Positions 909 to 34,599 of a DNA stretch of 42,393 nucleotides are shown here, piece after piece. The notes beneath the pieces are model-generated. The model saw only the letters and a program-made list of their open reading frames with translations. It did no database searches and had not been told where the DNA came from. The DNA comes from a virus. The stretch is taken from UHGV virus genome UHGV-0181047; one strand, written 5' to 3'. A program made the position numbers and the translations under genes. Position 1 is the stretch's first letter. Every line of letters begins with the position of its first letter.

Positions 909-2936
909 ATGATAGAGATCGATCAGGTTTATAAAGACCTGTTTAACGAATATGGTGGAAAAAGTCTTAAGCTGACTTTTTTTAAAGAAGAATATCATGC
1001 TCTGTACCCGTCTGAAACACTGTATCCTTCAGAGGATTTATATCCGTCTGAAATGTCTGCGGATGCTGTGGATTTTTCTATAGGAGATGATCAGATAGTA
1101 ACGGATTCCCTTACTATCACAGAAAGCCTGTGTTCAGACGAAGATCTAAGCTTTGGATCATGTGAGGCAGCCCAGTTTGAAATTACAGTAACGGGACTGA
1201 CCCAGAGTATTTCGGGCCGGGAATTTATGGCTATAGAGTCATTTGGTGGTTATAACATGGTCCTGGGATTGTTTAAAGTAGAGTCTACACCCAAGCAGGA
1301 AGACAAGAATACCAGAAAGATAATAGCCTATGACAGGATGCAGCGCTTTGATGCAGATGTGTCCGGCTGGTATAATTCACTGGAATTTCCAATGACATTG
1401 AAAGCATTTCGTAAATCACTTTGTGCATTTGTAGGTGTGCGTGAAGAGAATGCGGTTCTTGCTAATGATGAAATGCAGGTAGAAAAGACCATAAATCCTA
1501 CAGCTTTGAAAGGGCGGGAAGTACTGCAGCAGATCTGCCAGATCAATGGAGTATTTGGAAATATCAATAAGAATGGGGAACTGAGGTATATCGTACTTCC
1601 GGAAAAAGAGGATATATCCGCACGGATTACAATCTATCAGAATGCCGAGAGTGAAGAGTACACAGTTCCGGATATAGATACCGTACAGATCCGTCAGGAA
1701 GAGGGGGACATAGGCGGAACCAGCACAGGAGACGGTCAGAATGTTTATATCATTGAAGGAAACATGCTGGTATATGGCAAGACCACATCAGAGATAATAG
1801 GAATTGCCAATAACATTAAAAGCGTAGTAAACGGTCTGGAATACCAGCCCGCAACCATATCTGCAAACGGTTCCCCATGGATCGAAATAGGGGATAGGAT
1901 TAGTCTGGAGACTACAGACGGGATAGTTAATACCCTTGTGATGAAAAGGACCTTTACGGGCATTCAGGGAGCCATGGACAGCTATGAAAGTACTGGAAGC
2001 CAGGAGTTATCAAGACCTTTTAGCATTGAAAGCGAATTGATACAGATAAAAGGCTTATCAGCTATCCTTAAGCGATCTGTAGAAGAACTATCAAATGAAC
2101 TTACCAATCTGGAAGAGGGAACCAATTCCAAGTTTACCCAGATGGCTAATCAGATTTCCCTGGAAGTCACGAGAGCTACCGGTCAGGAAGCAGAACTGAA
2201 ATCAGCTATTAACGTAGTCAGTGATAAGATTGAACTGAAAGTCAGCCAGGGAGATGTATCAAATCAGCTTTCGGTGGAAACTGGTGGGATCAGCATAAAA
2301 GGCAACCGTTTTAGCTGGAACTCTACATATTCCTCTATGACGGCTGACGGTAAATTGACAGCAAGCAGCGGATCATTTACAGGTGATGTGGTGGCAAACA
2401 GTTTTAAAACCAATGATGGAAGCATTACATTGGCAAATGGAAAACTAAAGATTACCGGTGCAGAAATTGATGGGACTGCGAATACGAGTTCAATTGGTGC
2501 GAGTACGATTTACACAAACCATCTGGAAGTTGGAGGTAATGCGGTATTTGATTCAGGAGCGGATTTTTCAGGAGCGATTAACTGCCAAAATATCGATGCT
2601 AATCGAATAAGCTGTGTAAGTGTTTATTCATCCATGGCTGGGGAAACCTGGTCCGACAGAAGATTAAAGCATGACATCAGAGATGTTCATGAAAAGCTTG
2701 CTGTAGAAGTGATAAAAGGGCTGCGGCCGGTAGCTTATGCACTGAATGTAAACGATGCGGAAAGCCTGGGATTTATTGCACAGGAGGTAAAGAAAATGTG
2801 TGCAGATCTGGGCACGGAAATGCCATTATATACTAAAAATGGTAAATACTATTCCATCCCGTATATAAATTACATTCCATTGATAGTAAAGGCATTGCAA
2901 TATATCCTGCGGAAAGTGGAGGTTGAACATGGCTAA
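909..2936 (+). CDS. Tail tip protein (Tal-like / tail fibre) with C-terminal intramolecular-chaperone (peptidase S74) domain
   Basis: ATG 909 with GAGGAG RBS 8 nt upstream (the track's 825 start has no RBS). 675 aa. C-terminus WSDRRLKHDIRDV...GFIAQEV matches the SDxRLKxxI auto-cleaving chaperone motif of tail spikes/fibres. Position after TMP/Dit. Confidence 0.75.
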   Translation: MIEIDQVYKDLFNEYGGKSLKLTFFKEEYHALYPSETLYPSEDLYPSEMSADAVDFSIGDDQIVTDSLTITESLCSDEDLSFGSCEAAQFEITVTGLTQSISGREFMAIESFGGYNMVLGLFKVESTPKQEDKNTRKIIAYDRMQRFDADVSGWYNSLEFPMTLKAFRKSLCAFVGVREENAVLANDEMQVEKTINPTALKGREVLQQICQINGVFGNINKNGELRYIVLPEKEDISARITIYQNAESEEYTVPDIDTVQIRQEEGDIGGTSTGDGQNVYIIEGNMLVYGKTTSEIIGIANNIKSVVNGLEYQPATISANGSPWIEIGDRISLETTDGIVNTLVMKRTFTGIQGAMDSYESTGSQELSRPFSIESELIQIKGLSAILKRSVEELSNELTNLEEGTNSKFTQMANQISLEVTRATGQEAELKSAINVVSDKIELKVSQGDVSNQLSVETGGISIKGNRFSWNSTYSSMTADGKLTASSGSFTGDVVANSFKTNDGSITLANGKLKITGAEIDGTANTSSIGASTIYTNHLEVGGNAVFDSGADFSGAINCQNIDANRISCVSVYSSMAGETWSDRRLKHDIRDVHEKLAVEVIKGLRPVAYALNVNDAESLGFIAQEVKKMCADLGTEMPLYTKNGKYYSIPYINYIPLIVKALQYILRKVEVEHG

Positions 2937-3120
2937 GGTGGAGTACAAAAAAGAGGACATTCGGCTGTTGACGGCATTGCTTAATGCAATGACTGTAACT
3001 GGGCTTGAAAATATAAAACTTATGGCACGGGCTGCAGATATCATTAATACTGGAGTTGTAAAAGAAGTTCCGGAAAAACCGAAGCATACTGGAAAGGAAG
3101 AACAGAATGAAACTGAGTGA
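2929..3120 (+). CDS. Small hypothetical protein (63 aa)
   Basis: ATG 2929 preceded by GGAGG; 4-bp-type overlap with upstream gene. Confidence 0.4.
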   Translation: MAKVEYKKEDIRLLTALLNAMTVTGLENIKLMARAADIINTGVVKEVPEKPKHTGKEEQNETE

Positions 3121-3877
3121 TTTATTTTATGCCATAGTAGGGTGGGTAAACTACCCGGATACATCTACACCGGTGGGAAAAACGAATCTGCGGCATATGG
3201 ATAATGGTATCCTGCAATGTGCTCAGTACATTTTGGGGCTATCTCAGGATAAATTGGAGGTATCAGAAGCAGCAAAATTCATTACAGGCTGGGAAGTGGA
3301 TACCAAGACCTGGATCGTAACGGTAACACATAAGGACGGCACAGTGGAGACGGTAGATTTCCCTATTGAGATGATGCCGACAAAGCTTGACCTTGATGAA
3401 GATGATAATCTCGTGCTGGTCCAGCAGGACGGAACCACAAAGAAGATTAGCTTCCAACGTTTTGTTTATAACGTTTCCAGTACAGCGACGGTTGCCATGA
3501 AGTTGGACGGGACAACCATATCAGCCAATGTAGTAGACGGATCCATTACAGCAAATAAGCTAGAGCCTACATTGCAGAAGACTTTACGGCAGTATATGCT
3601 TGATGCTCAGGCAGCAGCGCAAGAGGCAGAGGCATATAATAAATCATCTATAAGCTATGCTGTGGGTGGTACTGGCTCCAGAACAGGGGAAGATACTGAT
3701 AACAGCAAATATTATAGCGAAAAGGCAAAAGAAGAAGCTGAAAAGGCTGGATCATATGCAAATCTGATATTCCCAGAATTTTATCTGGATACATCAACAG
3801 GGCATTTGATTTGCAAACAAGGAAAAACAGTAACAGTTAAAGTTGAAAATGATCATGTATTAGTGGAGGTGGCATAG
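3107..3877 (+). CDS. Baseplate/tail-fibre protein (BppU-like position)
   Basis: 256 aa between Tal and RBP; NVVDGSITANKL fibre-like motif; Ala/Glu-rich coiled segment. Confidence 0.5.
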   Translation: MKLSDLFYAIVGWVNYPDTSTPVGKTNLRHMDNGILQCAQYILGLSQDKLEVSEAAKFITGWEVDTKTWIVTVTHKDGTVETVDFPIEMMPTKLDLDEDDNLVLVQQDGTTKKISFQRFVYNVSSTATVAMKLDGTTISANVVDGSITANKLEPTLQKTLRQYMLDAQAAAQEAEAYNKSSISYAVGGTGSRTGEDTDNSKYYSEKAKEEAEKAGSYANLIFPEFYLDTSTGHLICKQGKTVTVKVENDHVLVEVA

Positions 3878-4563
3878 TGGCAAGTACAACAGATCTTGGT
3901 AAGTGGATGATTACCAATGGCGGAGAATACAATCCGGAAACAGCATATGAACAACTTACAATGGTAATGTATGAAAACAGTACATATATTACCTTAAAGA
4001 CTGTACAAGGCATCACACCTACAGATGATCATGTTAATTATCAGCTGATGGCCAAAGGTTTTAACCCTACAGCCCTGGCATCAGTGCAGGCAGAGGATAC
4101 CAGCGGAGTGCTGGGAGAAGCAGGAGGCACCGTGTCAGCCCAGGATCTTGTAGACTGGGTAGTAGACCAGGCAGCCAATAAACTGCTCAAATTGACGGAC
4201 CTGGTAAGTGTACAGACCAATGATCCGACCAAGGGTGTATCTGCGGCTCTGGCCTATGCTATGGGCCAGAAGATTGATGAAGTAAATAGTAATTTAGATA
4301 ACCGTATAGGTGTTGGCGAAAAGTTTACATCAGGTACTCTATTAAATATCATAAAGCAAATGTCTGATGGTATACATATGGCATTGGTTAGTGAAACCGT
4401 TTCTGATATTCCTTTTTCAAATACAGAAAACTACATTATTGTATTTAAAGGCACCAGTTACGGTGATCCATATACCAGAATAATGGCATTTCCCATGCCA
4501 AAAAGTTCTGCTCCAAAATGGGGAATGGTCTCATGGGAGAGTAGTAAAATTGTTTGGATCTAA
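3877..4563 (+). CDS. Receptor-binding protein (228 aa) with exchangeable C-terminal head domain
   Basis: GTG 3877 overlapping upstream stop (taGTG), GGAGGTG RBS. Last 88 aa follow the NSNL junction (4285-4296) and are paralogous to the promoterless cassettes downstream. Confidence 0.6.
   Translation: MASTTDLGKWMITNGGEYNPETAYEQLTMVMYENSTYITLKTVQGITPTDDHVNYQLMAKGFNPTALASVQAEDTSGVLGEAGGTVSAQDLVDWVVDQAANKLLKLTDLVSVQTNDPTKGVSAALAYAMGQKIDEVNSNLDNRIGVGEKFTSGTLLNIIKQMSDGIHMALVSETVSDIPFSNTENYIIVFKGTSYGDPYTRIMAFPMPKSSAPKWGMVSWESSKIVWI
4285..4296 (+). repeat. Core site 1 AATAGTAATTTA (NSNL codons) at constant/variable junction of RBP gene
   Basis: Identical 12-mer recurs at 4877-4888 (inverted), 6638-6649 (inverted), 8543-8554 (direct) and degenerate at 9115-9127. 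Confidence 0.7.
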
Positions 4564-4573
4564 AATGATCATT

Positions 4574-4888
4574 TTACTTATGCGTCAACGTAAAATCTCT
4601 ATTGGATATAATGACGCATTCATCCCAAGTACCCATTCCAGTAATTGATAAACGCGCTACCTTTCCCACACTATTGCAAGCCACTTTATATGTAGATCGA
4701 TTTACAAGAGCAGTGACATTTCCAATATTATGAAAAGAATATAGTCCTCCATCAGCTATGACCAAACCGCAAAAATGACTGCTGTCTATTATGGATGTTG
4801 CAAATACTTGTGTGTATTCACCTTCATTGGCAATTTTTTTGATGTATACATTACTGATGCAGCTGCTAACGATTGCTAAATTACTATT
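4574..4888 (-). other. Promoterless RBP C-terminal cassette 2 (inverted), starts at core site, no start codon
   Basis: Minus-strand frame opens with NSNL at 4888-4877 and runs ~100 codons to stop at 4576-4574, tail-to-tail with the expressed RBP across palindrome TAAAATGATCATTTTA. Confidence 0.6.
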
Positions 4889-4921
4889 TACGTCAATTAA
4901 ACTAAGAAAGGAAAATAAAAG

Positions 4922-5332
4922 ATGAATGAAAAATTAAGATTAAAAAATGGGGATGAATTCCCCTTAGTAACTGATGGAGTTACAGAGTATAACGATACTC
5001 TCAAACTGACCTTTCAGTCAGACGAAAAATTAGAAGATTTAATCGCAGATTTTTCAAAAGACTCCAATACAGAGCAGATCAAGGTTATTAATGCAACCGG
5101 AGAAACATTATCAATCTATGACGGTTATACAGTTCTGGGTGATCCAAAAAGCATTAATGAAAATGCTGTTATCACAGCGGCAACATATGACGATGATGGG
5201 GATGTAAAGGCAGAGGCTGTTATAGGAAGAACAGCAACGTTTTCACTTTCAAAGCCAGGAATCACTGAGCAGGTAAAGCAGAACCGCGCAGATATTGATT
5301 TTTTAGCGGTTATGACAGGAAATGACTTATAG
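4922..5332 (+). CDS. Hypothetical protein (XkdW-like position)
   Basis: 136 aa ORF between tail-fibre module and the XkdX-like gene. Confidence 0.45.
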   Translation: MNEKLRLKNGDEFPLVTDGVTEYNDTLKLTFQSDEKLEDLIADFSKDSNTEQIKVINATGETLSIYDGYTVLGDPKSINENAVITAATYDDDGDVKAEAVIGRTATFSLSKPGITEQVKQNRADIDFLAVMTGNDL

Positions 5333-5343
5333 GAGGAAAAAGT

Positions 5344-5475
5344 ATGTTAAGTGTAAAAAATATGGCTGAAAAGTATTATCCTAAATACTGGACCAAAGAG
5401 CGGTTACGGGATTTAGTAGAAGCAAAAAAACTGACAGAAGCAGAGTACTATGAGATCACTGGAGAAAAGTATTAA
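5344..5475 (+). CDS. XkdX-family small phage protein (43 aa)
   Basis: AGGAGG RBS; ...KYWTKERLRDLVEAKKLTEAEYYEITGEKY resembles the XkdX consensus (W..E.L...V....IT..EY..ITG). Confidence 0.55.
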   Translation: MLSVKNMAEKYYPKYWTKERLRDLVEAKKLTEAEYYEITGEKY

Positions 5476-5492
5476 GTTGCACCGGTGCAACT
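5475..5492. repeat. Perfect 18-bp palindrome AGTTGCACCGGTGCAACT (parS-like)
   Basis: Also at 28871-28886 (16/18), 34363-34380 (17/18) and 16667-16683 (one core mismatch). Confidence 0.7.
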
Positions 5493-5508
5493 AAAAGGAG
5501 GACTTTTT

Positions 5509-6228
5509 GTGCGAGATATAACATTATGTCATCCACGGCTGCAGACTTTGGCCCAGGAGTTGATAAAAGTCTGCAACAAAAGTGGATTAAAGATAAAAAT
5601 CGGAGAAACATTTAGGACCAAAGAAGAGCAAGATGATTTGTACGCTCAGGGAAGAACCAAACCGGGAAATGTTGTAACTAATGCGCCAGGATCAAGTTAT
5701 AGCTCTTATCATCAATGGGGGACAGCATTTGATATTTACAGAGCAGACGGAAAAGGTGCGTACTATGACAGTGACGGGTTCTTTTCAAAAGCTGGTGCCA
5801 TAGGAGTAAAACTTGGCCTTGAATGGGGCGGAAACTGGCACAGCATTGTAGATAAGCCACATTTCCAACTTCCAGATTGGGGGAGTGGGACAGCGGGGAT
5901 AAAGAAAATGTATGCTACTCCAGAAGAGTTTATGAAGACGTGGGTCAAGCAGGAAGGCTGGATCCATGACAGTAATGGGTGGTGGTACTGCAACAAAGAT
6001 GGAAGTTACCCAAAAAACAAATGGGGACTGATAAATCATCACTGGTATCTTTTTAACAAAGATGGTTATGCATGCACCAGCTGGCATCGTTGGAATGGAA
6101 GTATTTGCGATCCAGAGGACGGATCTGGAGATTGGTATTATTTCGACCCTACACCCAATGGACAAACAGAATGTGCTTGCTGGAAAAGCAACGACAAGGG
6201 AGCATTAGGAGTGTGGTACGTTGAGTAA
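5509..6228 (+). CDS. Endolysin: peptidase M15 (VanY-like L-Ala-D-Glu / D,D-peptidase) plus cell-wall-binding repeats
   Basis: GTG 5509 after AAAGGAGGA. SYHQWGTAFDI (HxxxxxxD) and DKPHFQ zinc-ligand motifs. C-terminal GWWY/NGxWY choline-binding-type repeats. Confidence 0.8.
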   Translation: MRDITLCHPRLQTLAQELIKVCNKSGLKIKIGETFRTKEEQDDLYAQGRTKPGNVVTNAPGSSYSSYHQWGTAFDIYRADGKGAYYDSDGFFSKAGAIGVKLGLEWGGNWHSIVDKPHFQLPDWGSGTAGIKKMYATPEEFMKTWVKQEGWIHDSNGWWYCNKDGSYPKNKWGLINHHWYLFNKDGYACTSWHRWNGSICDPEDGSGDWYYFDPTPNGQTECACWKSNDKGALGVWYVE

Positions 6229-6370
6229 AAACAAAATGCCACTAACTCAATAGTAAATATGGTTATAACTAAAATAAGGAATAATCCAATAGGAACGCCT
6301 TATAAAATAGAAAGTCTTTCTATGGAATGGGATTCGACAAATTGGCAAAGTGTTGATTTAATATGATCAT

Positions 6371-6649
6371 TTAATCCCAAACGATTTGACTACTGTTCCA
6401 GAAGACCATTCCCCATTTTGGAATCGAGTGTTCAGCCATGGCAAATGCCATTATTCTGGTATATGGATCACCGTAACTGGTGCCTTTAAATACAATAATG
6501 TAGTTTTCTGTATTTGAAAAAGGAATACCAGAAACTTTTTTATCAACCAATGCCATATGTATACCATCAGACATTTGCTTTATGATACTTAATAACTCAC
6601 CTGATGTAAACTTTTCACTAACGCTTATACGATTGTTTAAATTACTATT
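6371..6649 (-). other. Promoterless RBP C-terminal cassette 3 (inverted), mosaic paralogue of expressed head domain
   Basis: Minus-strand frame from core site 6649-6638 (NSNL) to stop 6373-6371. Shares 43-bp and 84-bp blocks of 100% identity with 4347-4389 and 4408-4491. No start codon or RBS. Confidence 0.65.
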
Positions 6650-6672
6650 TCTTAAAATCGGAGGTAAAAAGA

Positions 6673-6861
6673 ATGAAAATTGCAGGAAAAGAATTCAAGG
6701 AAATTTTGGTCATTAAGGATAATGAAGAACTGGTTATAAGCATCACGGATGAGAATGTGATAGAAAAGGAAGGATATAAAGCGATATGTGTGCCGGTGAG
6801 TGATCAGCCTACCGGAAGTAAGTCACACGAAATATCACACGAATGTGATAAGACCGCATAA
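6673..6861 (+). CDS. Hypothetical small protein
   Basis: ATG with GGAGGT RBS, 62 aa. Confidence 0.4.
   Translation: MKIAGKEFKEILVIKDNEELVISITDENVIEKEGYKAICVPVSDQPTGSKSHEISHECDKTA
6820..6850 (+). repeat. Arm-type direct repeats (TCACACG x2) left of attP core
   Basis: aagtcacacgaaatatcacacg; same heptamer repeated 3x at 7020-7050. Confidence 0.45.
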
Positions 6862-6874
6862 ATACGTAATTTAT

Positions 6875-6900
6875 GGCGGGTTCGAATCCCGTCTCGCGCT
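6875..6900 (+). other. tRNA 3'-end fragment (T-arm + acceptor), probable attP core
   Basis: GCGGG-TTCGAAT-CCCGT T-arm followed by 7-nt acceptor strand CTCGCGC and discriminator. No D or anticodon arms upstream. Adjacent to integrase. Confidence 0.5.
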
Positions 6901-6904
6901 TCAA

Positions 6905-6953
6905 TAAAAAACCTTGTAAATACTGGATTTTCTAGCATTTACAAGGTTTTTTC
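6905..6953. terminator. Bidirectional hairpin (15-bp stem) with flanking A/T tracts
   Basis: aaaaaccttgtaaat...atttacaaggtttttt. Confidence 0.4.
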
Positions 6954-7017
6954 ATGCTTTCATAAAAATGAAAAGGACAGTATGCTTCCTTAAAAGGAAA
7001 GTTTTTTACGGTACCTA

Positions 7018-7050
7018 AGTCACACGAAAGTCACACGGAAATATCACACG
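7018..7050 (+). repeat. Arm-type direct repeats (TCACACG x3) right of attP core
   Basis: aagtcacacgaaagtcacacggaaatatcacacg, same orientation as left cluster. Confidence 0.45.
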
Positions 7051-8081
7051 GCAAAATGAGAGAAATGATCAAGGATTTTTTCATTCTGTCGGATCGCTTC
7101 TTCTGTGATCTGGTTGACGTAGACACGGCGCATCATGTAGTTTGAGGACCAGCCCCCACGCTTTTGTATATACAGATCCGGAACGCCCATAGCATGCATG
7201 ATTGAAGCTCCATAGTGCCGCAGATCATGAAAGCGGAAATGGGGAACACCGGATTTTATCAAAGCCTTCCGGAAACGATGAGAAAGTGCTGTAGGTGTAC
7301 AGGTAACCAGAGGACCGTGAAAAGCATGGATCTTTGTGATCACAAAATCCGGAAAAACAACTTTCCGGTAAGACTGGTAAGTCTTAGGTGCCTTGTCGAT
7401 CAACTGGTTGTTGCGGCCATAGACCAGGTTGTGCGAAATGCAGACTGTATTGCCCTGTACATCGGTTGTGGTCAAGGAACACACTTCCCCAAGCCGCAAA
7501 GGGCCAAAGGCCGCCAGAAGGATAGCAATCTCCAGCTCCGGATCATCCTTGACTGTCTGCAGAAGTTTTTTTATATCTGTGTCAGATGGGCAGTACAGAT
7601 CAGTTTGCACTTTTGCGGGAAGTGTGGCAGAGGCCAGTGAGTTTTTGGGGGCAAACATTGCCAGCGCAGGAGTGAAAAGCGCATAGATATTTGCGACTGT
7701 CTTAGGAGACCTGCCTTTAGATATGTCAGATATCCATAGCTGTATATCCTGATCCGTAAGGTCCGCCAGGGCGAAGTTTCCAAAAACTCCGGAAAAATGT
7801 GATTTGAGCAAAGAGTCATATCCTCGGAGAGTGGATCCGGACAAGACTCCTTCTTTTGTCTGGATGTATCTTTCAACAGCATCATGTACGGTCAGGGATG
7901 CTGCAGGTTTGGAAGACTGCAATTTCTTCTGGATCTTCCATTCATCACGGAGAGCTTTAGCTTCAGTCAGAGTGCTGGCGGTAAAGCTCTTGTAGTGCTT
8001 TTTCCCGGTTTCGTCCATGTAGTCAAAGGCCTGGACACGGACAGAGCCGGACGGTAAACGATTTTTCTTCTTTTTGGGCAT
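7044..8081 (-). CDS. int: Site-specific tyrosine integrase
   Basis: 345 aa; R...HDLRH...Y catalytic signature (RFHDLRHYGAS, RVYVNQ) with N-terminal SAM-like core-binding domain; next to attP-like region. Confidence 0.9.
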   Translation of the reverse strand: MPKKKKNRLPSGSVRVQAFDYMDETGKKHYKSFTASTLTEAKALRDEWKIQKKLQSSKPAASLTVHDAVERYIQTKEGVLSGSTLRGYDSLLKSHFSGVFGNFALADLTDQDIQLWISDISKGRSPKTVANIYALFTPALAMFAPKNSLASATLPAKVQTDLYCPSDTDIKKLLQTVKDDPELEIAILLAAFGPLRLGEVCSLTTTDVQGNTVCISHNLVYGRNNQLIDKAPKTYQSYRKVVFPDFVITKIHAFHGPLVTCTPTALSHRFRKALIKSGVPHFRFHDLRHYGASIMHAMGVPDLYIQKRGGWSSNYMMRRVYVNQITEEAIRQNEKILDHFSHFAV

Positions 8082-8212
8082 AATGTATCATCCTCCTGAA
8101 TAAAATTTATATGGGCCACGAAGTTGATAGGGCTTGCATGGCTGCTGGAAGAGTGATACAATATAAACGGTTGGAGTTTGATGTTGTATCACTCAACACA
8201 ATCTTACTAAAA

Positions 8213-8241
8213 GGGTTCCCTGCCGCAAGGGAACCTTTTTT
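8213..8241. terminator. Rho-independent terminator hairpin (both strands T-rich)
   Basis: gggttccctgccgcaagggaacc + tttttt. Confidence 0.5.
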
Positions 8242-8273
8242 ATTGTTTATTTACAAAATATAAAGAGTTTACC

Positions 8274-8302
8274 TTGAAAATTATGGGAAAATACTCTATA
8301 AT
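8274..8302 (+). promoter_or_regulatory. Consensus sigma-A promoter TTGAAA-N17-TATAAT followed by 7-bp inverted repeat
   Basis: Exact 17-nt spacing; aatctgc...gcagatt dyad immediately downstream of -10. Confidence 0.5.
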
Positions 8303-8399
8303 CTGCATTATATAGCAGATTATAGCGCAGAGGGGGTAGGATGTAAAGCGAAAGAATAAAGAAATTTAAAACCGATAGCTTATCGTAGGAGGAATGAAG

Positions 8400-8510
8400 A
8401 TGGATTATCGTGAAAAAATTCTTTACCTTCTGGATAAAACAAAGTCTGAAAAAATACTAAAGAAAGTTTATGATTTTTTGAAATACTTATACATATACGA
8501 AGAAGATTAG
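8400..8510 (+). CDS. Small ORF (36 aa) MDYREKILYLLDKTKSEKILKKVYDFLKYLYIYEED, moron-like
   Basis: AGGAGG RBS 7 nt upstream, own promoter and terminator; below the track's length cut-off. Confidence 0.4.
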   Translation: MDYREKILYLLDKTKSEKILKKVYDFLKYLYIYEED

Positions 8511-8535
8511 CCAGGCAATAAGCCTGGTTTTTTTA
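8509..8535 (+). terminator. Rho-independent terminator
   Basis: gccaggcaataagcctgg + ttttttt. Confidence 0.6.
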
Positions 8536-8542
8536 TGCCAAT

Positions 8543-8845
8543 AATAGTAATTTAATTTCTGTAAAGACGTTTGGAATTGAAGTTACAACCAGATCAACTA
8601 AGGATCCGACATCTGATTTATATATTGGATCATACAAACTTGTTGAATCTCCGTCATATCCCGAAGGAGAAAATATATTAGCAGTAATCCCATATAGTGC
8701 CAGATCGAAATCAGATGCAGGACGTTCAGCTATGGTCGCATATAGAACTAGTGATACACTTATTAGTGTAAATTCACCGAATCAGCCTAACGAGGTATTT
8801 GTTGTAAATATTGCAGTATTTTATTCATTTTCTAATAACAAATGA
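8543..8845 (+). other. Promoterless RBP C-terminal cassette 4 (direct orientation)
   Basis: Begins at core AATAGTAATTTA (NSNL), 100 codons, ends TGA inside palindrome AAATGATCATTT. No start codon. Sequence unrelated to cassettes 1-3. Confidence 0.6.
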
Positions 8846-9303
8846 TCATTTTGTAGCAAATTCTCGCCAGGCTGTCCATGTGTTTGTATCCTCATCTCTA
8901 TATCGTGTGTACAAAGACACTCCATTGGTTGCAATTAAGCATGAGTAATTTCCATTACCATTGTATGGTATATTAATAGCACACACCCAACCTGACGTAG
9001 GTGCATTTTGGGAATTAAACCCAGAATACCAACCTTGTATAGAAATATTATTCCAATCGTTAATATTACCATCTTGAAGATATAAAGGTTGAGGGATCTT
9101 ATCTTGTTTATAGCTTAATTACTATCTTGGACAATACTGTATAAAGGATGACTTCCTTCGGAAGATACTATGCAAAATGAGTAAAGTGTCCTACCAGCTG
9201 GTATATATTTGCTCAGATCAATGCTACCTGTTTTCCCAGTGGTAGAAACAACTTCTCTACCAAAGACTGCTTGTACAGGTAGTAGATCCGTAGTATAAAG
9301 CAA
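8846..9303 (-). pseudogene. Decayed RBP 3' copy / cassette 5 (inverted) with 1-nt deletion in core site
   Basis: Minus strand: ...KLLYTTDLLPVQA...VQDSN then GATAGTAATT-AAGC (core missing one T) shifts frame; downstream 88 codons (SYKQDKIPQPLYL...REFATK) end at TGA in the 8840-8851 palindrome. Confidence 0.5.
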
Positions 9304-9464
9304 TTTCTGTTCTAAATTTTAAAAAAAACACCATCCATTTGACCTTTTTATATTAAAAGTGTTACCGTCACCCGTTTCTTTGAAGTAAATTCGATCATTA
9401 AAATTTTTACATAAGAAAAGAGAACCGTTTTGTTGGCCTCACCAAAACGATTCTCTTTCTTTTT

Positions 9465-9827
9465 TTAGAGCTTCTGAAGTTCTTCCAGGATGTCCTTGAT
9501 CATCTGCCAGTACTTGGCATCCAGCTTAGCGAATTTGATCAGTGTAGATTTGATAAATTCGTCATCCCCGTCCAGGATAGAACTGATAATAGCCTGCGCA
9601 TCACTATTATCGTCCTGGAACATATCACCGGATCCGTAGACAAGCCAGTCATAGTTGACTTTGAATTTTCGGCAAATGTCTTTAAGGGTTCGATCAGATG
9701 GCTTTTTCTGTCCCATTTCAATTTGAGTAACAAAATTTCTGCTTAATTCTAGCTGATCTGCAAATTGTTGTTGCGTCAAAGAAAGGGCTTTCCGAAGCTC
9801 TTTGAATCGATATTTCAACCTACTCAC
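9465..9827 (-). CDS. CI-like phage repressor (XRE-family HTH)
   Basis: HTH LSLTQQQFADQLELSRNFVTQIEMGQ; divergent from the early operon; start codon (GTG 9827 or TTG 9818) uncertain. Confidence 0.8.
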   Translation of the reverse strand: MSRLKYRFKELRKALSLTQQQFADQLELSRNFVTQIEMGQKKPSDRTLKDICRKFKVNYDWLVYGSGDMFQDDNSDAQAIISSILDGDDEFIKSTLIKFAKLDAKYWQMIKDILEELQKL

Positions 9828-9839
9828 CTCCTCAAAATT

Positions 9840-9868
9840 ATATTACTGCAAAATGCTCACAAAGTCAA
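9840..9868 (-). promoter_or_regulatory. Leftward repressor-maintenance-type promoter TTGACT-N17-TAATAT
   Basis: On minus strand upstream of the repressor gene. Confidence 0.4.
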
Positions 9869-9917
9869 CACAAAATGCTTGACAATGCTCCTAAAGTGAG
9901 TTATTATATGCTCACAA
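9853..9917. promoter_or_regulatory. Candidate operator repeats ATGCTCACAA (9853-9862 and 9908-9917)
   Basis: Two direct 10-mer copies flanking or overlapping the divergent promoters. Confidence 0.35.
9879..9907 (+). promoter_or_regulatory. Rightward early promoter TTGACA-N17-TATTAT
   Basis: Perfect -35 with 17-nt spacer; overlapped by the ATGCTCACAA operator repeat. Confidence 0.55.
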
Positions 9918-9926
9918 GGAAACAAT

Positions 9927-10139
9927 TTGTCAGATAAGCAAATCATCAAGGAGGTGAGAAGAACGAAAACATTTAAAAGTCTACACATAGATTTAGAAAA
10001 GAAGATATTTCTTCTTGACGGAGAACCATTGCAGCGGACAGTAGGCTTGTATCTGGATTACGAATTTGGAAAATGGACACTGCAGCTGACTCAGGAAGTA
10101 GATTATCAGATGCAGTGCCCAAATGAGATTAAGGAATAA
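9927..10139 (+). CDS. Small early protein, paralogue of 10537..10716
   Basis: KTFKSLHIDLEKKIFLLDGEPLQ vs KEFKSIHIDPEKKIFLLNGQPMK; the ATG of the paralogue is ACG here, so the start is inferred as TTG 9927. Confidence 0.4.
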   Translation: MSDKQIIKEVRRTKTFKSLHIDLEKKIFLLDGEPLQRTVGLYLDYEFGKWTLQLTQEVDYQMQCPNEIKE

Positions 10140-10443
10140 ATTTTGTAACGTATTCTATTACTTCCTTAAGACCATTTACAAAACGGTTTTCCATATAAAT
10201 GATAGCGGAATCGGTTAGAGTGAAATCACCCAAGATATCAGTTTTAACGAGTCCGGCGCGTTGTAATTCAGCTAATGTTGAATCGCAATCAGACGGGGAC
10301 CAGGAAGAAAAGGCATCATTTTTTGAAAAATAATTTTCTTCAAATTTACGGGCCTTTGATTTAGGAACTCCGTTTTTGCGTAGCTGTAAATAGGTTGCAT
10401 AAATACGGCAAATCATTTTGTCAGCATCTTTAGTAAGCTGCAT
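10129..10443 (-). CDS. Hypothetical protein encoded antisense within the early operon
   Basis: 104 aa, AAAGGAG RBS, flanked by the two paralogous plus-strand genes. Confidence 0.5.
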   Translation of the reverse strand: MQLTKDADKMICRIYATYLQLRKNGVPKSKARKFEENYFSKNDAFSSWSPSDCDSTLAELQRAGLVKTDILGDFTLTDSAIIYMENRFVNGLKEVIEYVTKFIP

Positions 10444-10536
10444 AAAGTTCTCCTTTCTTTAAGTACTAGGCTTTGGCGTAGGCCTGCAAGTACAAGTATA
10501 AGGCGAGAAAACAGAAAAGTAAATGGAGAGGTGAAC

Positions 10537-10716
10537 ATGAAAGAATTTAAAAGTATACATATTGATCCAGAGAAGAAAATTTTTCTTTTAAACGGACAGC
10601 CCATGAAAGATGTTTCAGAGCTGCATTTGAGCTTTGAGGATATCTGGAGACTGCAGGTGAAGAGAGAAAACGGATCAGAAGAAAGTGTAAGTACTGACCA
10701 CATAAAAGAGGAGTAA
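10537..10716 (+). CDS. Small early protein, paralogue of 9927..10139
   Basis: GGAGAGGTG RBS, ATG 10537. Confidence 0.5.
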   Translation: MKEFKSIHIDPEKKIFLLNGQPMKDVSELHLSFEDIWRLQVKRENGSEESVSTDHIKEE

Positions 10717-15844: not shown

Positions 15845-17113
15845 TTGGAATTAGTAGAATACAGCAGTTATAAAGAATTTAAGGCGGAAACAGACCGTGT
15901 TATGACCAACTTAAAAAGGGCTATGGGAGAGACTGCAATCGGGTTTGTGGAAATGGGATATCAGTTAAAATTGGCCAGAGATACGCAAGTTCTTCAGCAG
16001 AGCGGATATACCAGCCTGACAGCTTTTGCAGCAGCAGAGTATGATCTGGATAAATCATGGGTATCAAGGCTTATCGGGATCAATAACAAATTTTCAGAAA
16101 ATGGATACTCCAAAAAGCTCCGACCCCAGTATGAGGGCTTTGGTGTTGCAAAGCTGACACTGATGCTAAGCCTTCCGGATGAGCTGAATGAGGTTCTGAC
16201 ACCGGATCTGAGCAAAGCGGATGTGCAGGCGATCAAGGCAGAGGTGGACGAAGAAAAGAAGACCTCAGATATTGAGCTGTATCTGGAACAGCAGCAGGAA
16301 CCACCGCAAGAACAGGAAAAAACACTGTTGGGAAAGGCAGTCAAGATCATTCTCCATGATGATCCTGAACTGTATGGAGAGATCCACCACATTATCCACA
16401 CAGACCATAGAGCAAAAGACCTGGCAGAGGCTTTCGCACCGGCTGGAACAAAGGTAGATTTTGCAAGAATTCCGGGTGTAGGCCGTCTGGCTGTGTCTTT
16501 TAAGGGGGCAGACAGAGATATCGAAATAGTCAATGTCAGATCTGGAGCTAAGGAAAATGCAGACTGGGCAAGCCTGGAAGAAATCCTGATCAGATTAATG
16601 CCGAATGAAAATGTGAAAAGTGACTGGAAAGAAATTTACGGGGAAGAATATCCAGAAAAAGAGAAAGTTGCACCGGTACAACCAGGGACGGCCAAGATGC
16701 CGCCTAAGCCTACAAAGGAGAAAAGCAAGGTTACAAGGGCCATCACAGAACGGCCAAAGCCATCCCGAAAAACGGAGCCTGTACCAGTAAAGCCACTGCT
16801 TCATGATGTTGAGCCGTCCATACCGGTGCCGGATCCGATCCCAGAGCCGGAAACTCCGGAAGAACCAGTAAAAGATCCGGAAGCAGAAGAGCAGGTTGAA
16901 GGGCAGGACAGCATAGAAAACCACAGAGAGTGGATGCCAGTGCCAGCCCAAGAAGATCATGTCTGCTTAAGTGAAAAAAATGAGATCTTAAACAAGCTGC
17001 ATGAACTTCGGCGATTGATCATGAAAAATGAAAAAGCTGCAGCTTTGAGCCAGGCAGAGGAAGTTACAAGACTGATAGGAGTGTGGGACTGTGAAAAGCA
17101 TCATACAGACTGA
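15845..17113 (+). CDS. Hypothetical protein with Pro/Glu-rich low-complexity linker
   Basis: TTG start after AGGAGG; 422 aa; globular N-terminal domain then P/E/K-rich tract. Confidence 0.5.
   Translation: MELVEYSSYKEFKAETDRVMTNLKRAMGETAIGFVEMGYQLKLARDTQVLQQSGYTSLTAFAAAEYDLDKSWVSRLIGINNKFSENGYSKKLRPQYEGFGVAKLTLMLSLPDELNEVLTPDLSKADVQAIKAEVDEEKKTSDIELYLEQQQEPPQEQEKTLLGKAVKIILHDDPELYGEIHHIIHTDHRAKDLAEAFAPAGTKVDFARIPGVGRLAVSFKGADRDIEIVNVRSGAKENADWASLEEILIRLMPNENVKSDWKEIYGEEYPEKEKVAPVQPGTAKMPPKPTKEKSKVTRAITERPKPSRKTEPVPVKPLLHDVEPSIPVPDPIPEPETPEEPVKDPEAEEQVEGQDSIENHREWMPVPAQEDHVCLSEKNEILNKLHELRRLIMKNEKAAALSQAEEVTRLIGVWDCEKHHTD
16667..16683. repeat. Palindrome variant AGTTGCACCGGTACAAC
   Basis: inside CDS 15845..17113. 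Confidence 0.5.
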
Positions 17114-22366: not shown

Positions 22367-23404
22367 ATGCACGAAGATATAAAGAAAGAGATTATCAACA
22401 ACGTAGTAGTAGCAATGTCTTGTTACATCAGTGATATGGATGTTTTAAATGTCCTGGAAAATATATTGAGTACCGAACTGATCCAGGTCAAAGTGGAGAA
22501 GACAAATTCTCTTCCATCGGAGTGGAAAAGCGAAACTGAAAAAAGAAATCAGTATCTCATCCAGCTTTTTATGATAAAAAAGCGAGGTCTCAGTAAAGAA
22601 ACGATACAAGGATATCTGAGGAGTGTGAAAAGACTGATGCTCATGGTGAGCAAGCCACTGGATCAGGTAGATACACTGGATATTGAATGGTATTTGGCAG
22701 CATATGAAAAGCGGCCAGGGCAGAGGAAAGAAAAGATAGAAAATTCCACATATAACAGCGAGAGGCGCTTTTTGTCAGCTTTTTATACCTGGATGAGGAA
22801 GGCAAAGCTGATAAGCGAAAATCCTGTAGAAGCTACAGAAGCTAAAAAAGTACCGCAAAAGCCTATAGATTACTTTGCCAGAGAAGAAATCATAAAGCTA
22901 AGAGATGCCTGCAGGAATGCCAGGGAAAGGGCAATGGTGGAAGTTTTTAGATCAACTGGTGCCAGAGTAGGAGAAATCGCTGATATACAGCTTGATCAGG
23001 TGGTATTTGATACTGGCAGCATACTGATATGCGGAGAAAAAGGCGGACGATATCGGACTTTGTATTTGGATGATGATGCACGGCATTACTATCAGATCTA
23101 CCAGCAAAGCAGGACAGACAACAGCCCATATCTGTTTACGCAGCTCAGAAAGCCATACGGAAAGTTAGGAAAGAGCTCTTACAGAAACATTTTAAAAACC
23201 ATAGGAAAAAGGGCGGGACTGACAGTAAGGGTATATCCGCATAAAATGAGAAAAACACTGGGCATGGACCTGAAAAACAGAGGGGTAGATATAGGCACGA
23301 TTCAGGAAGTACTTGGACATGCAAGCCCAGCAGTTACAAGTCTCTACTATGCTCAGTCAACCGAAAAGACTTTGAGGGATATAAGAGAAAGAGTTGCAGC
23401 ATAA
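22367..23404 (+). CDS. XerC/XerD-like tyrosine recombinase (second recombinase)
   Basis: 345 aa; ...RVGEIADIQL..., HKMRKTLG, LGHASPAVTSLYY catalytic region; own terminator upstream. Confidence 0.85.
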   Translation: MHEDIKKEIINNVVVAMSCYISDMDVLNVLENILSTELIQVKVEKTNSLPSEWKSETEKRNQYLIQLFMIKKRGLSKETIQGYLRSVKRLMLMVSKPLDQVDTLDIEWYLAAYEKRPGQRKEKIENSTYNSERRFLSAFYTWMRKAKLISENPVEATEAKKVPQKPIDYFAREEIIKLRDACRNARERAMVEVFRSTGARVGEIADIQLDQVVFDTGSILICGEKGGRYRTLYLDDDARHYYQIYQQSRTDNSPYLFTQLRKPYGKLGKSSYRNILKTIGKRAGLTVRVYPHKMRKTLGMDLKNRGVDIGTIQEVLGHASPAVTSLYYAQSTEKTLRDIRERVAA

Positions 23405-28745: not shown

Positions 28746-29186
28746 ATGAGTGGATATGACCCATATTTAGGTGCAATGGGAAGCTTTCAGGCTGACCAGG
28801 CTATGCTGCAGCAGCGCATCAACCAGTTGGAGCAGATGAAGAGACAGCAGTATCAGCAGCCATATCAGCCAGTTGCACCGGTGCAAAACGTCAACTGGAT
28901 ACAGGTGGCTGGACTGGAAGGCGCAAGAAATCAGATCGTGCAGCCAGGAAACACAGCATGGATGATGGATAACAATGCTCCTGTCTTCTATGTGAAGGCA
29001 GTGGACGGCATGGGAAGCGCCACACTTAAAGCGTTCCGCTTCCAGGAAGTACCGCCAGAGTCTCTGACGGCAATACAGACGGTTCCTAACGGGAAAGACG
29101 ATAAATATGTCACACGAGAGGAATTTAATGCCTTTTTGACGCGATTAGGAGAAAAACCAGAAGAAAGGGAGACTGAGCATGAATAA
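28746..29186 (+). CDS. Gln-rich hypothetical protein
   Basis: GGGAGAGGGA RBS; Q-rich N-terminus. Confidence 0.4.
   Translation: MSGYDPYLGAMGSFQADQAMLQQRINQLEQMKRQQYQQPYQPVAPVQNVNWIQVAGLEGARNQIVQPGNTAWMMDNNAPVFYVKAVDGMGSATLKAFRFQEVPPESLTAIQTVPNGKDDKYVTREEFNAFLTRLGEKPEERETEHE
28871..28886. repeat. Palindrome copy AGTTGCACCGGTGCAA
   Basis: inside CDS 28746..29186. Confidence 0.6.
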
Positions 29187-31928: not shown

Positions 31929-32181
31929 AATGTGCTATCAGTAAAAAAAGAAAAATATGATATGCTGACCATGTGGGGTGAGTGGACCCACAGATCATGG
32001 TATCCTCCTGACTTGATATGCGTCCTTAAAATAAACGGCTTCGGCCGGAGGTTGAAAAGCGGATGAGATTTCCGGCGCATATCCTGCAGCTGTTCCCCCT
32101 TTACAGCTGCATTTCTCCTCCTTTCGGTGTGCGAGAGCATAGCACGTAAAGAATATTGCTAACCGGCAAAATGCCGGTTAA

Positions 32182-32254
32182 GGACCGCTATCTCAGCTGG
32201 AAGAGAAGCCGCCTCATAAGCGGCGGGTCCTGGGTTCGAATCCCAGGTGGTCCA
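32182..32254 (+). tRNA. tRNA with CAU anticodon (elongator Met or Ile2 type)
   Basis: Hand-folded cloverleaf: acceptor GGACCGC/GTGGTCC (one G-U), D-stem TCTC/GAGA with GG loop, anticodon stem GCCGC/GCGGC, loop CTCATAA, T-arm CTGGG-TTCGAAT-CCCAG, discriminator A. Confidence 0.8.
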
Positions 32255-34116: not shown

Positions 34117-34599
34117 ATGGCATATGCTGATTATACATTTTATACAAAAGAGTATTTCGGCAATGCTGTGCCGGAATCTGATTTTCCAAGATGTGCAGAA
34201 CGGGCATCAGACTGGATTGATACGATCACATTTGACCATATCCAGTCGGAAGAACTGGCAGAGGAAGAGAAAGCCATGAAACGGATCAGGAAAGCGGTCT
34301 GCGCCATAGCTGAAATCCTTTATCAGATGGATCTTGCTCAGAGGCAGGCGATAAATATCGCAAGTTGCACCGGTGCAACCGGAAAAGGCGGGATCATAAC
34401 ATCCAGATCTGCCGGAAGTGAGTCGATTTCTTATGCCAGTCCCCAGCAGATGGGAACAGGCGCAAAGGAATGGAGTGCAACCTATTCAGCTGCAGGAGAT
34501 GCACAGAAAACGAATGATTTACTAACAAAGACTGCACTGCCGTATCTGATGGGGATAAGAACCAAAGACGGAATGCCAGTGTTATATGCAGGAGTGTGA
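34117..34599 (+). CDS. Head-tail connector/adaptor-like protein
   Basis: MAYADYTFYTKEYFGNAV... N-terminus typical of gp6/gp15-like adaptors; position after MCP. Confidence 0.45.
   Translation: MAYADYTFYTKEYFGNAVPESDFPRCAERASDWIDTITFDHIQSEELAEEEKAMKRIRKAVCAIAEILYQMDLAQRQAINIASCTGATGKGGIITSRSAGSESISYASPQQMGTGAKEWSATYSAAGDAQKTNDLLTKTALPYLMGIRTKDGMPVLYAGV
34363..34380. repeat. Palindrome copy AGTTGCACCGGTGCAACC
   Basis: inside connector-like CDS, different reading frame from the 28871 copy. Confidence 0.6.

Follow-up and report, generated by a model that had tools for sequence, protein, structure and literature searches.

Convergent tail-fibre cassettes of a Lachnospiraceae-type phage meet stop to stop at a palindromic seam where single cassettes appear to be re-paired

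In the shufflon of plasmid R64, the tyrosine recombinase Rci acts on pilV, through segments carrying two convergent alternative 3′ ends. The host range of a phage is set by the tip of its receptor-binding protein, and the known inversion systems of this kind (Mu G, P1 C, Min and Rin) explain switching within a fixed set of tips, not renewal of the set. Here we analyse the tail-fibre locus of UHGV-0181047, a virus genome of 42,393 nucleotides (nt; the whole stretch is called the window below), in which pairs of convergent C-terminal cassettes are separated only by short palindromes. The closest known system is the Rin shufflon of Bifidobacterium prophages, which works with a tyrosine recombinase (Mavrich et al. 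2018, PMC6109161). In both, a constant N-terminal part is followed by several C-terminal tip cassettes, of about 95–100 amino acids (aa) in Rin and 92–104 aa for the intact cassettes of the window; a short asymmetric crossover repeat stands ahead of each cassette (11 bp in Rin, 12–13 bp here); the recombinase, in the window a candidate only, is a tyrosine recombinase without arm-binding domain and is separate from the phage integrase; and isomers are found between related genomes. The new element, within this known kind of tail-fibre inversion system, would be the seam between cassette 3′ ends and the re-assortment of single cassettes at it.

The window is the complete circular genome of a Lachnospiraceae-type temperate phage with a shufflon-like system; its IS110-family gene runs continuously over the join of end and start. 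It contains five core sites (S1 to S5), five open cassettes (c1 to c5) and cassette fragments, all listed in Table 1. The cassettes are promoterless, and c1 and c3 are 87% identical in inverted orientation (repeat I1). The tail-fibre gene itself has weak PHROG tail-fibre matches. Our comparison drew on 62 related loci from collections of viral and gut metagenome sequence; distinct units numbered 37 and distinct cassette ends 85. The N-terminal part is 43–94% identical across these loci, and homology stops at the core site, which is equally positioned in all relatives. Since 11–12 nt are common to all cores, the position of the 5′ crossover inside the core cannot be narrowed further. A convergent cassette pair between inverted cores is present in nearly all of the 62 loci.

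Both orientations of one unit were found in near-identical phages (L012/L039, L015/L055 and L027/L029), and the c1/c2 unit of the window (U1) is flipped in L174 at 97% identity. Between the window and its closest relatives, homology ends at S1 and resumes at S2. Given the shared cores, the units in both orientations and these breaks of homology, the locus appears to be a working multi-site inversion system of the shufflon type, the isomers being seen between related genomes and not within the window's own population. Units lacking the junction motif also occur in both orientations (L027/L029, L015/L055), and the motif is therefore not required for inversion. In L174 (positions 1479–3005), the same N-S-N-L core links the c2/c1 unit to an unrelated, alanine-rich tail fibre of 508 aa; nothing else in the stretch of about 11 kb resembles the window. 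Entire units are therefore also passed from one tail-fibre shaft to a different one.

A first-pass annotation of the window, made from its letters alone, had described convergent cassettes meeting at TGATCA-centred palindromes that carry both stops. This description holds for J1 and J2, coordinates included. J2 reads Lys-TGA/TCA-Lys on the two strands, and the inner TGA/TCA of J1 is not used as stop. The third junction, J3, exists as well, one nucleotide further on than the positions first assigned to it (6362–6369), and the plus-strand remnant suspected near c3 is real. Its end (...NWQSVDLI-TGA) corresponds to that of a complete cassette in L025 (...NWRSVDLV-stop). The 10-mer AATGATCATT was thought to occur only at cassette ends, and indeed its two copies in the window are those at J1 and J2 (0.17 expected). 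The shorter ATGATCAT occurs eight times against 1.5 expected, with three copies at the junctions and two encoding Asp-His in tail genes. When one mismatch was allowed, AAATGATCATTT was found at the three junctions and at 3847–3858 within the upstream tail gene. No genome-wide enrichment of palindromes of at least 12 nt was detected (13 found, 11.8 ± 3.1 simulated), and it is therefore their position, not palindromy as such, that constitutes the non-random signal.

Two junction-like sequences, AAAATGATCATGT (3846–3858) and AGATGATCATGT (4023–4034), lie inside tail genes, where they encode Asn/Asp-Asp-His-Val and are kept in L002, L003 and L020. They are coding coincidences, and would be hazardous pseudo-sites for an enzyme recognising the junction motif alone.

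The comparison set shows what makes the palindrome. The gap between the two stops is 0–10 nt in 20 of the 37 units, and one more pair overlaps by 14 nt. A dual-stop hexamer TRATYA follows within 12 nt of the stop at 49 of the 85 cassette ends, where about 2.6% would be expected; it is mostly flanked by AAA on the left and TTT on the right, and the last residue is Lys at 27 of the 85 ends. TGATCA was counted 16 times, and TAATTA, TAATCA and TGATTA 11 times each. Among these 49 ends there is no excess of palindromic hexamers over random pairing of TGA and TAA, and GATC is missing from the hexamer in 33. Palindromy and GATC are therefore not conserved features, contrary to the importance first attached to them. 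The general form of the junction is Lys-stop/stop-Lys, which J2 follows exactly. At J1 and J3, as in several relatives, an early TAA stop precedes the old boundary by a few bases, and this boundary survives downstream. The idea that every cassette has conserved flanks on both sides was borne out for the 5′ core, present in each cassette, and for the 3′ boundary in the clade of the window; more distant relatives carry TAATCA, TGATTA, TAATTA or long spacers there.

These counts bear on two explanations that involve no exchange. In the first, already hinted at in the first-pass annotation, the palindrome would be a site for regulation or protein binding that responds to GATC (Dam-type) methylation and is tied to a methyltransferase of the phage. 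GATC does lie within the window junctions, and the open reading frame (ORF) 21292–21798 matches PHROG 954 'DNA methyltransferase' (E = 1e-63), but its Pfam and NCBIfam matches are only sub-threshold. Moreover, the window has 256 GATC sites (about 6 per kb), which are not depleted and among which the junction sites are not special, and relatives of the same architecture have the three other hexamers or long GATC-free spacers. We regard this proposal as very improbable. In the second, a bidirectional terminator or protective RNA hairpin would act independently of orientation, in keeping with its symmetric placement between convergent frames and with the strong hairpin found there in another clade (L015, L017; −27 kcal/mol, z = −6.6). 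The window junctions, however, fold no better than shuffled sequence (z = −1.5, +0.6 and 0.0), no terminator-like site was called at any of them, and the lysis genes, directly downstream on the same strand, would be cut off if they are on the tail-gene transcript. Such a function at the window junctions is hardly credible. The hairpin of the other clade occupies a 48-nt spacer (10634–10687 in both L015 and L017; also present in L055, L060 and L057) and shows a compensatory change between relatives, CUGC/GCGG versus CUAC/GUAG. Pairs with this spacer were never found re-partnered.

The main observation concerns cassette partners. Inversion at the 5′ cores never changes which two cassettes are paired. 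Nevertheless, of the 13 cassette families present in at least two units, 9 have partners that differ between units. Copies of c2 (98–99.4% identical) adjoin c1 in the window and L174, VFYF in L003 and KLSN in L175, and KLSN (99.6%) adjoins a remnant, KMWYR, VFYF or c2. Each of the three possible pairs among c2, VFYF and KLSN was found. The KMWYR, GIAYYI and CG cassettes have two different partners each, with GIAYYI and CG copies 97–98% identical. Re-pairing is shown by this comparison of genomes rather than by exchange events observed directly. We considered assembly chimeras an unlikely source, as assembler k-mers are longer than the shared join of at most 12 nt and several samples contributed contigs.

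The re-partnered cassettes of the window's clade are 96–99.6% identical; homology always breaks off inside ATGATCAT, and in every case identity ends within TGATCA or at its edge. The bases adjacent to the hexamer (AAAA, AAA, ATA or GGA) always stay with their own cassette, and the crossover is therefore confined to about 8–12 nt. In KLSN, 35 nt separate the stop from the hexamer, yet this spacer stays whole in every pairing and the breakpoint is still at the hexamer, so that survival of intact cassettes alone does not explain where the breakpoint falls. By contrast, pair families with long motif-free spacers (F00/F01 and F05/F06) stay together at 93–99% identity. The earlier suggestion that the flanks could serve a double crossover or gene conversion agrees with these comparative data, in which single cassettes have been exchanged with breakpoints inside the palindrome. 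The seam thus appears to be a shared 3′ cassette boundary at which single cassettes re-assort in the clade of the window.

We propose that the palindrome is the seam where two promoterless C-terminal tail-fibre cassettes meet tail to tail in an invertible unit. Each cassette has the 5′ crossover core (AAATAGTAATTTA) at its head and a brief 3′ boundary, ...(A)AA-TGA, that is common to the cassettes; with stop-to-stop packing and boundaries on opposite strands, the two boundaries together read AAA-TGA/TCA-TTT. Some cassettes have gained an earlier TAA, and the former boundary is still present a little further on, J1 being an example. The expressed tip is swapped by inversion between S1 and one of the inverted cores, and the palindrome takes no part in this. 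The seam is the only sequence common to unrelated cassette 3′ ends, and crossovers within its 8–12 nt have repeatedly given single cassettes new partners. These crossovers would be guided by short homology during co-infection or replication, selection then retaining the products in which both cassettes are intact. We assign a probability of roughly 0.5 to this combination of short-homology recombination and selection. Several points weigh against it. Neither cassette uses the motif stops at J1, in L001 or in unit 2 of L003, and the motif is kept there all the same; coding constraint alone is therefore insufficient for its conservation. L001 even has a perfect 18-nt palindrome. The stable long-spacer pairs, which serve as the contrast set, represent two lineages only. 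Finally, 8–12 nt is very short for homology-guided recombination, and the many precise and recent events (96–99.6% identity) hint at an enzyme-directed process.

The same data were weighed under two further readings. In one of these, the palindrome would be a by-product of back-to-back stops and terminal Lys codons, arising through selection for a short invertible segment and having no role in recombination; apparent breakpoints in the motif would simply reflect the survival of recombinants with both cassettes intact. The family-wide Lys-stop/stop-Lys form, the near-random frequencies of the four stop combinations and the normal inversion of motif-free units are consistent with this, as are gaps of 0–10 nt, which leave hardly any other viable crossover point. 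Short distances between the targeted genes are, besides, a known trait favouring programmed inversions and typical of them (PMC9881135). The 35-nt spacer of KLSN argues otherwise, since it would tolerate any crossover, yet four different left neighbours join at the hexamer. Persistence of the motif where its stops are not used also speaks against it, and most junctions are precise, with a single hexamer copy. We consider it unlikely that a by-product is all there is.

In the other, the palindrome would be a second, symmetric site of the phage tyrosine recombinase, heterospecific to the 5′ core, so that each cassette could be swapped alone. Core and junction have like A/T arms and different 6-bp overlaps (AAA-TAGTAA-TTTA and AAA-TGATCA-TTT), and their outer bases agree at 10 of 14 positions for the TGATCA form and at 10 of 12 for the AAATAATCATTT form. 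Every cassette brings a WAAA-TGA, which resembles a half-site; crossovers lie within the hexamer in at least nine pairings of nearly identical cassettes, including KLSN with its unbroken spacer; motif-free pairs are not re-partnered; and the phage does encode a second tyrosine recombinase. Viewed as a recombinase core, the palindrome has crossovers mapping within TGATCA/ATGATCAT and symmetric A/T-run flanks, but conserved arms of just 3–5 nt, and the likeness to the 5′ core was spotted post hoc in AT-rich sequence. Other clades have non-identical hexamers, and a near-site that would be hazardous, AAATGATCATGT (3847–3858), is kept in relatives within an essential tail gene. Imprecise junctions also exist: unit 2 of L003 has a 1-nt insertion, unit 2 of L002 has two hexamers whose starts are separated by 12 nt, and truncated remnants lie at junctions in L178, L019 and the second unit (U2) of the window. 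Exchange between J1 and J2 is predicted to give the junctions GGATCTAAAATGATCATTTGTTATTAG and GTTTGGATCTAAAATGATCATTTGTTATTAGAA for c1/c4 and CATAAGTAAAATGATCATTTTGTAGC and GACGCATAAGTAAAATGATCATTTTGTAGCAAATTC for c2/c5, and no isomers of this type were found in the four near-identical two-unit genomes examined. A second site is accordingly a minority option in our assessment. Its fuller version, where a single recombinase would use two heterospecific sites (5′ core overlap TAGTAA, symmetric 3′ overlap TGATCA) to invert units and also to swap single cassettes between units or co-infecting phages, seems to us doubtful to a slightly higher degree.

The best candidate for the invertase would be this second tyrosine recombinase, which is XerC/D/XerA-like. 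It is also encoded in five cassette-bearing contigs (L002, L003, L005, L015 and L017) and has homologues in genome records of Enterocloster, [Clostridium] asparagiforme, Hungatella and other Lachnospiraceae. Its gene lies about 18 kb from the cassette locus and is widespread in Lachnospiraceae prophages. A Pfam scan of 40 ORFs, each of at least 100 aa and covering not all of the large structural ones, found no serine recombinase (resolvase/invertase) domain. We also considered the IS110-family DEDD gene as a Piv-like invertase and rejected it: it rides on an insertion of about 1.74 kb without counterpart in L001–L003, and copies 93% identical occur in unrelated contigs. This insertion directly follows the stop of a DUF6711 tail gene. 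IS110 elements encode a guide RNA in their upstream non-coding region; here, a palindrome CCATGATCATGG (583–594) lies in a non-coding stretch of about 290 nt (532 to about 825) upstream of the gene.

Table 1. Positions of the cassette units, their sites and junctions, and associated features in the window
Feature	Position	Strand	Remarks
Constant N-terminal part of the tail-fibre (receptor-binding) gene	3877..4284	+	within ORF 3877-4563
S1, in-frame crossover core AAATAGTAATTTA (N-S-N-L) of the expressed gene	4284..4296	+	repeat I6; inside ORF 3877-4563
Cassette 1 (c1), currently expressed	4285..4563	+	ends ...SKIVWI-stop
Junction J1, TAAAATGATCATTTTA	4561..4576		between c1 and c2; real stops are the outer TAA 4561-4563 (+) and TTA 4574-4576 (-)
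Cassette 2 (c2), silent	4574..4888	-	ends ...FTLTHK-stop
S2, inverted core site	4877..4889	-	homology to relatives resumes at 4876/4877
Passenger genes between units	4922..6228	+	136-aa ORF, 43-aa ORF, endolysin 5485-6228; PHROG matches
Truncated cassette remnant	6259..6366	+	ends ...NWQSVDLI-stop; stop is the motif TGA 6364-6366; repeat D8
Junction J3, ATGATCAT	6363..6370		between the truncated remnant and c3
Cassette 3 (c3), silent	6371..6649	-	ends ...SQIVWD-stop; stop TTA 6371-6373
S3, inverted core site	6638..6650	-	
attP region and phage integrase (7044-8081)	6800..8081	-	Pfam Phage_integrase; repeat D9; passenger between cassette units
S4, core site	8542..8554	+	direct orientation relative to S1
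Cassette 4 (c4), silent	8543..8845	+	ends ...SFSNNK-stop
Junction J2, AAATGATCATTT	8840..8851		between c4 and c5; TGA 8843-8845 abuts TCA 8846-8848
Cassette 5 (c5), silent, open frame	8846..9115	-	ends ...REFATK-stop
S5, degenerate core GATAGTAATTAAG	9114..9126	-	1-nt deletion; would frameshift c5 if joined
Cassette-6 fragment reading into S5	9127..9318	-	N-terminal part resembles L025 and L178 cassettes
Second tyrosine recombinase, XerC/D/XerA-like	22367..23404	+	Pfam Phage_integrase and SAM-like N domain; partial NCBIfam Xer matches under curated cutoffs
IS110-family insertion, about 1.74 kb	41550-42393 plus 1-895 (wraps ends)	-	408-aa DEDD/Transposase_20 protein

At S5, AATTAAG replaces AATTTAG, which puts c5 out of frame, and the cassette-6 fragment stops within the core. 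When the missing T is restored, the cassette-6 fragment and c5 form one unbroken frame.

The gene order of the window is tail genes, the tail-fibre gene (3877–4563), lysis genes, an attP-like region and the integrase, followed by an XRE repressor (9465–9827), replication genes, the recombinase at 22367–23404, and terminase and head genes. The cassette units (4284–9126) therefore straddle the lysis genes, attP (about 6800–7040) and the integrase. Should the distal cores take part in inversion, the lysis or integration modules would be flipped. In an integrated prophage, units 1 and 2 would sit at the end opposite to unit 3, about 38 kb away. The endolysin has a Pfam Peptidase_M15_4/VanY match. 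The attP-like region contains a tRNA 3′ fragment (about 6877–6900) and repeated TCACACG motifs; no intact tRNA was found at 6800–8081. AAGTCACACGAAA and TCACACG repeats lie at 6810–6832 and 7007–7029, on either side of the tRNA-fragment attP core beside the integrase, and are probably arm-type integrase binding sites.

Elsewhere in the window, a GC-rich palindrome (G)TTGCACCGGTGCAA(C) has three exact copies, at 5475–5492, 28873–28886 and 34364–34379 (0.16 expected), one of them directly preceding the endolysin start. A near-copy with one mismatch lies at 16668–16681 and a related copy is present in L026; this palindrome may be a protein-binding site. An Rfam scan of the window returned only a RAGATH-21 RNA (73.7 bits; 32015–32083) and one tRNA, a tRNA-Met gene (32182–32254), both between head genes, and gave no match at any junction. 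No match was obtained by megablast of 3000–10500 against GenBank phages, the tail-fibre profile gave zero confirmed relatives among GTDB species genomes, and the tail fibre had no meaningful match to PDB sequences.

Taken together, the comparative results show that tips move as single modules, joined to new partners or, as in L174, to unrelated shafts, at two very short fixed boundaries. Were exchange at the 3′ seam enzyme-directed, the seam would be a natural site for cassette exchange of a new kind, ready for use in retargeting gut phages. With short homology only, it would still provide a precise rule for the recombination points of receptor-binding modules in Lachnospiraceae phages. If two sites are used, the system would be nature's equivalent of recombinase-mediated cassette exchange, and for that case alone it can be compared with exchange at heterospecific lox or FRT sites. 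There, too, the two sites at the ends of a cassette have similar arms but different overlaps, and each end recombines only with its own kind. Those systems are engineered, with 13-bp arms and proven catalysis, in contrast to the putative arms of 3–5 nt in the window.

Like the R64 shufflon, the locus would combine multi-site inversion by a tyrosine recombinase with sites of which only a short part is conserved. R64, however, diversifies a conjugative-pilus adhesin on a plasmid and its partners are fixed within a segment; we know of no evidence for exchange at its 3′ junction. The Mu G, P1 C and p15B Min systems share with the window the convergent alternative 3′ parts of tail-fibre genes between inverted crossover sites, the fusion of a different C-terminus to a constant 5′ part by inversion and, in p15B, the presence of several units (PMC6109161). 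They differ in their serine invertases (Gin, Cin and Min), their enhancer and their chaperone genes (U/U′), whereas cassettes here have only about 90–105 codons and no second gene. With respect to the closest system, Rin (PMC6109161), the differences lie in the arrangement. Rin adjoins its cassettes, while the recombinase that may serve here is about 18 kb away. Neither a 3′ seam nor re-pairing of single cassettes is described for Rin, whose cassettes are tandem small genes with rix sites also after their 3′ ends. In the window, by contrast, cassettes form strictly convergent pairs with back-to-back stops, in units scattered across lysis genes, attP and integrase.

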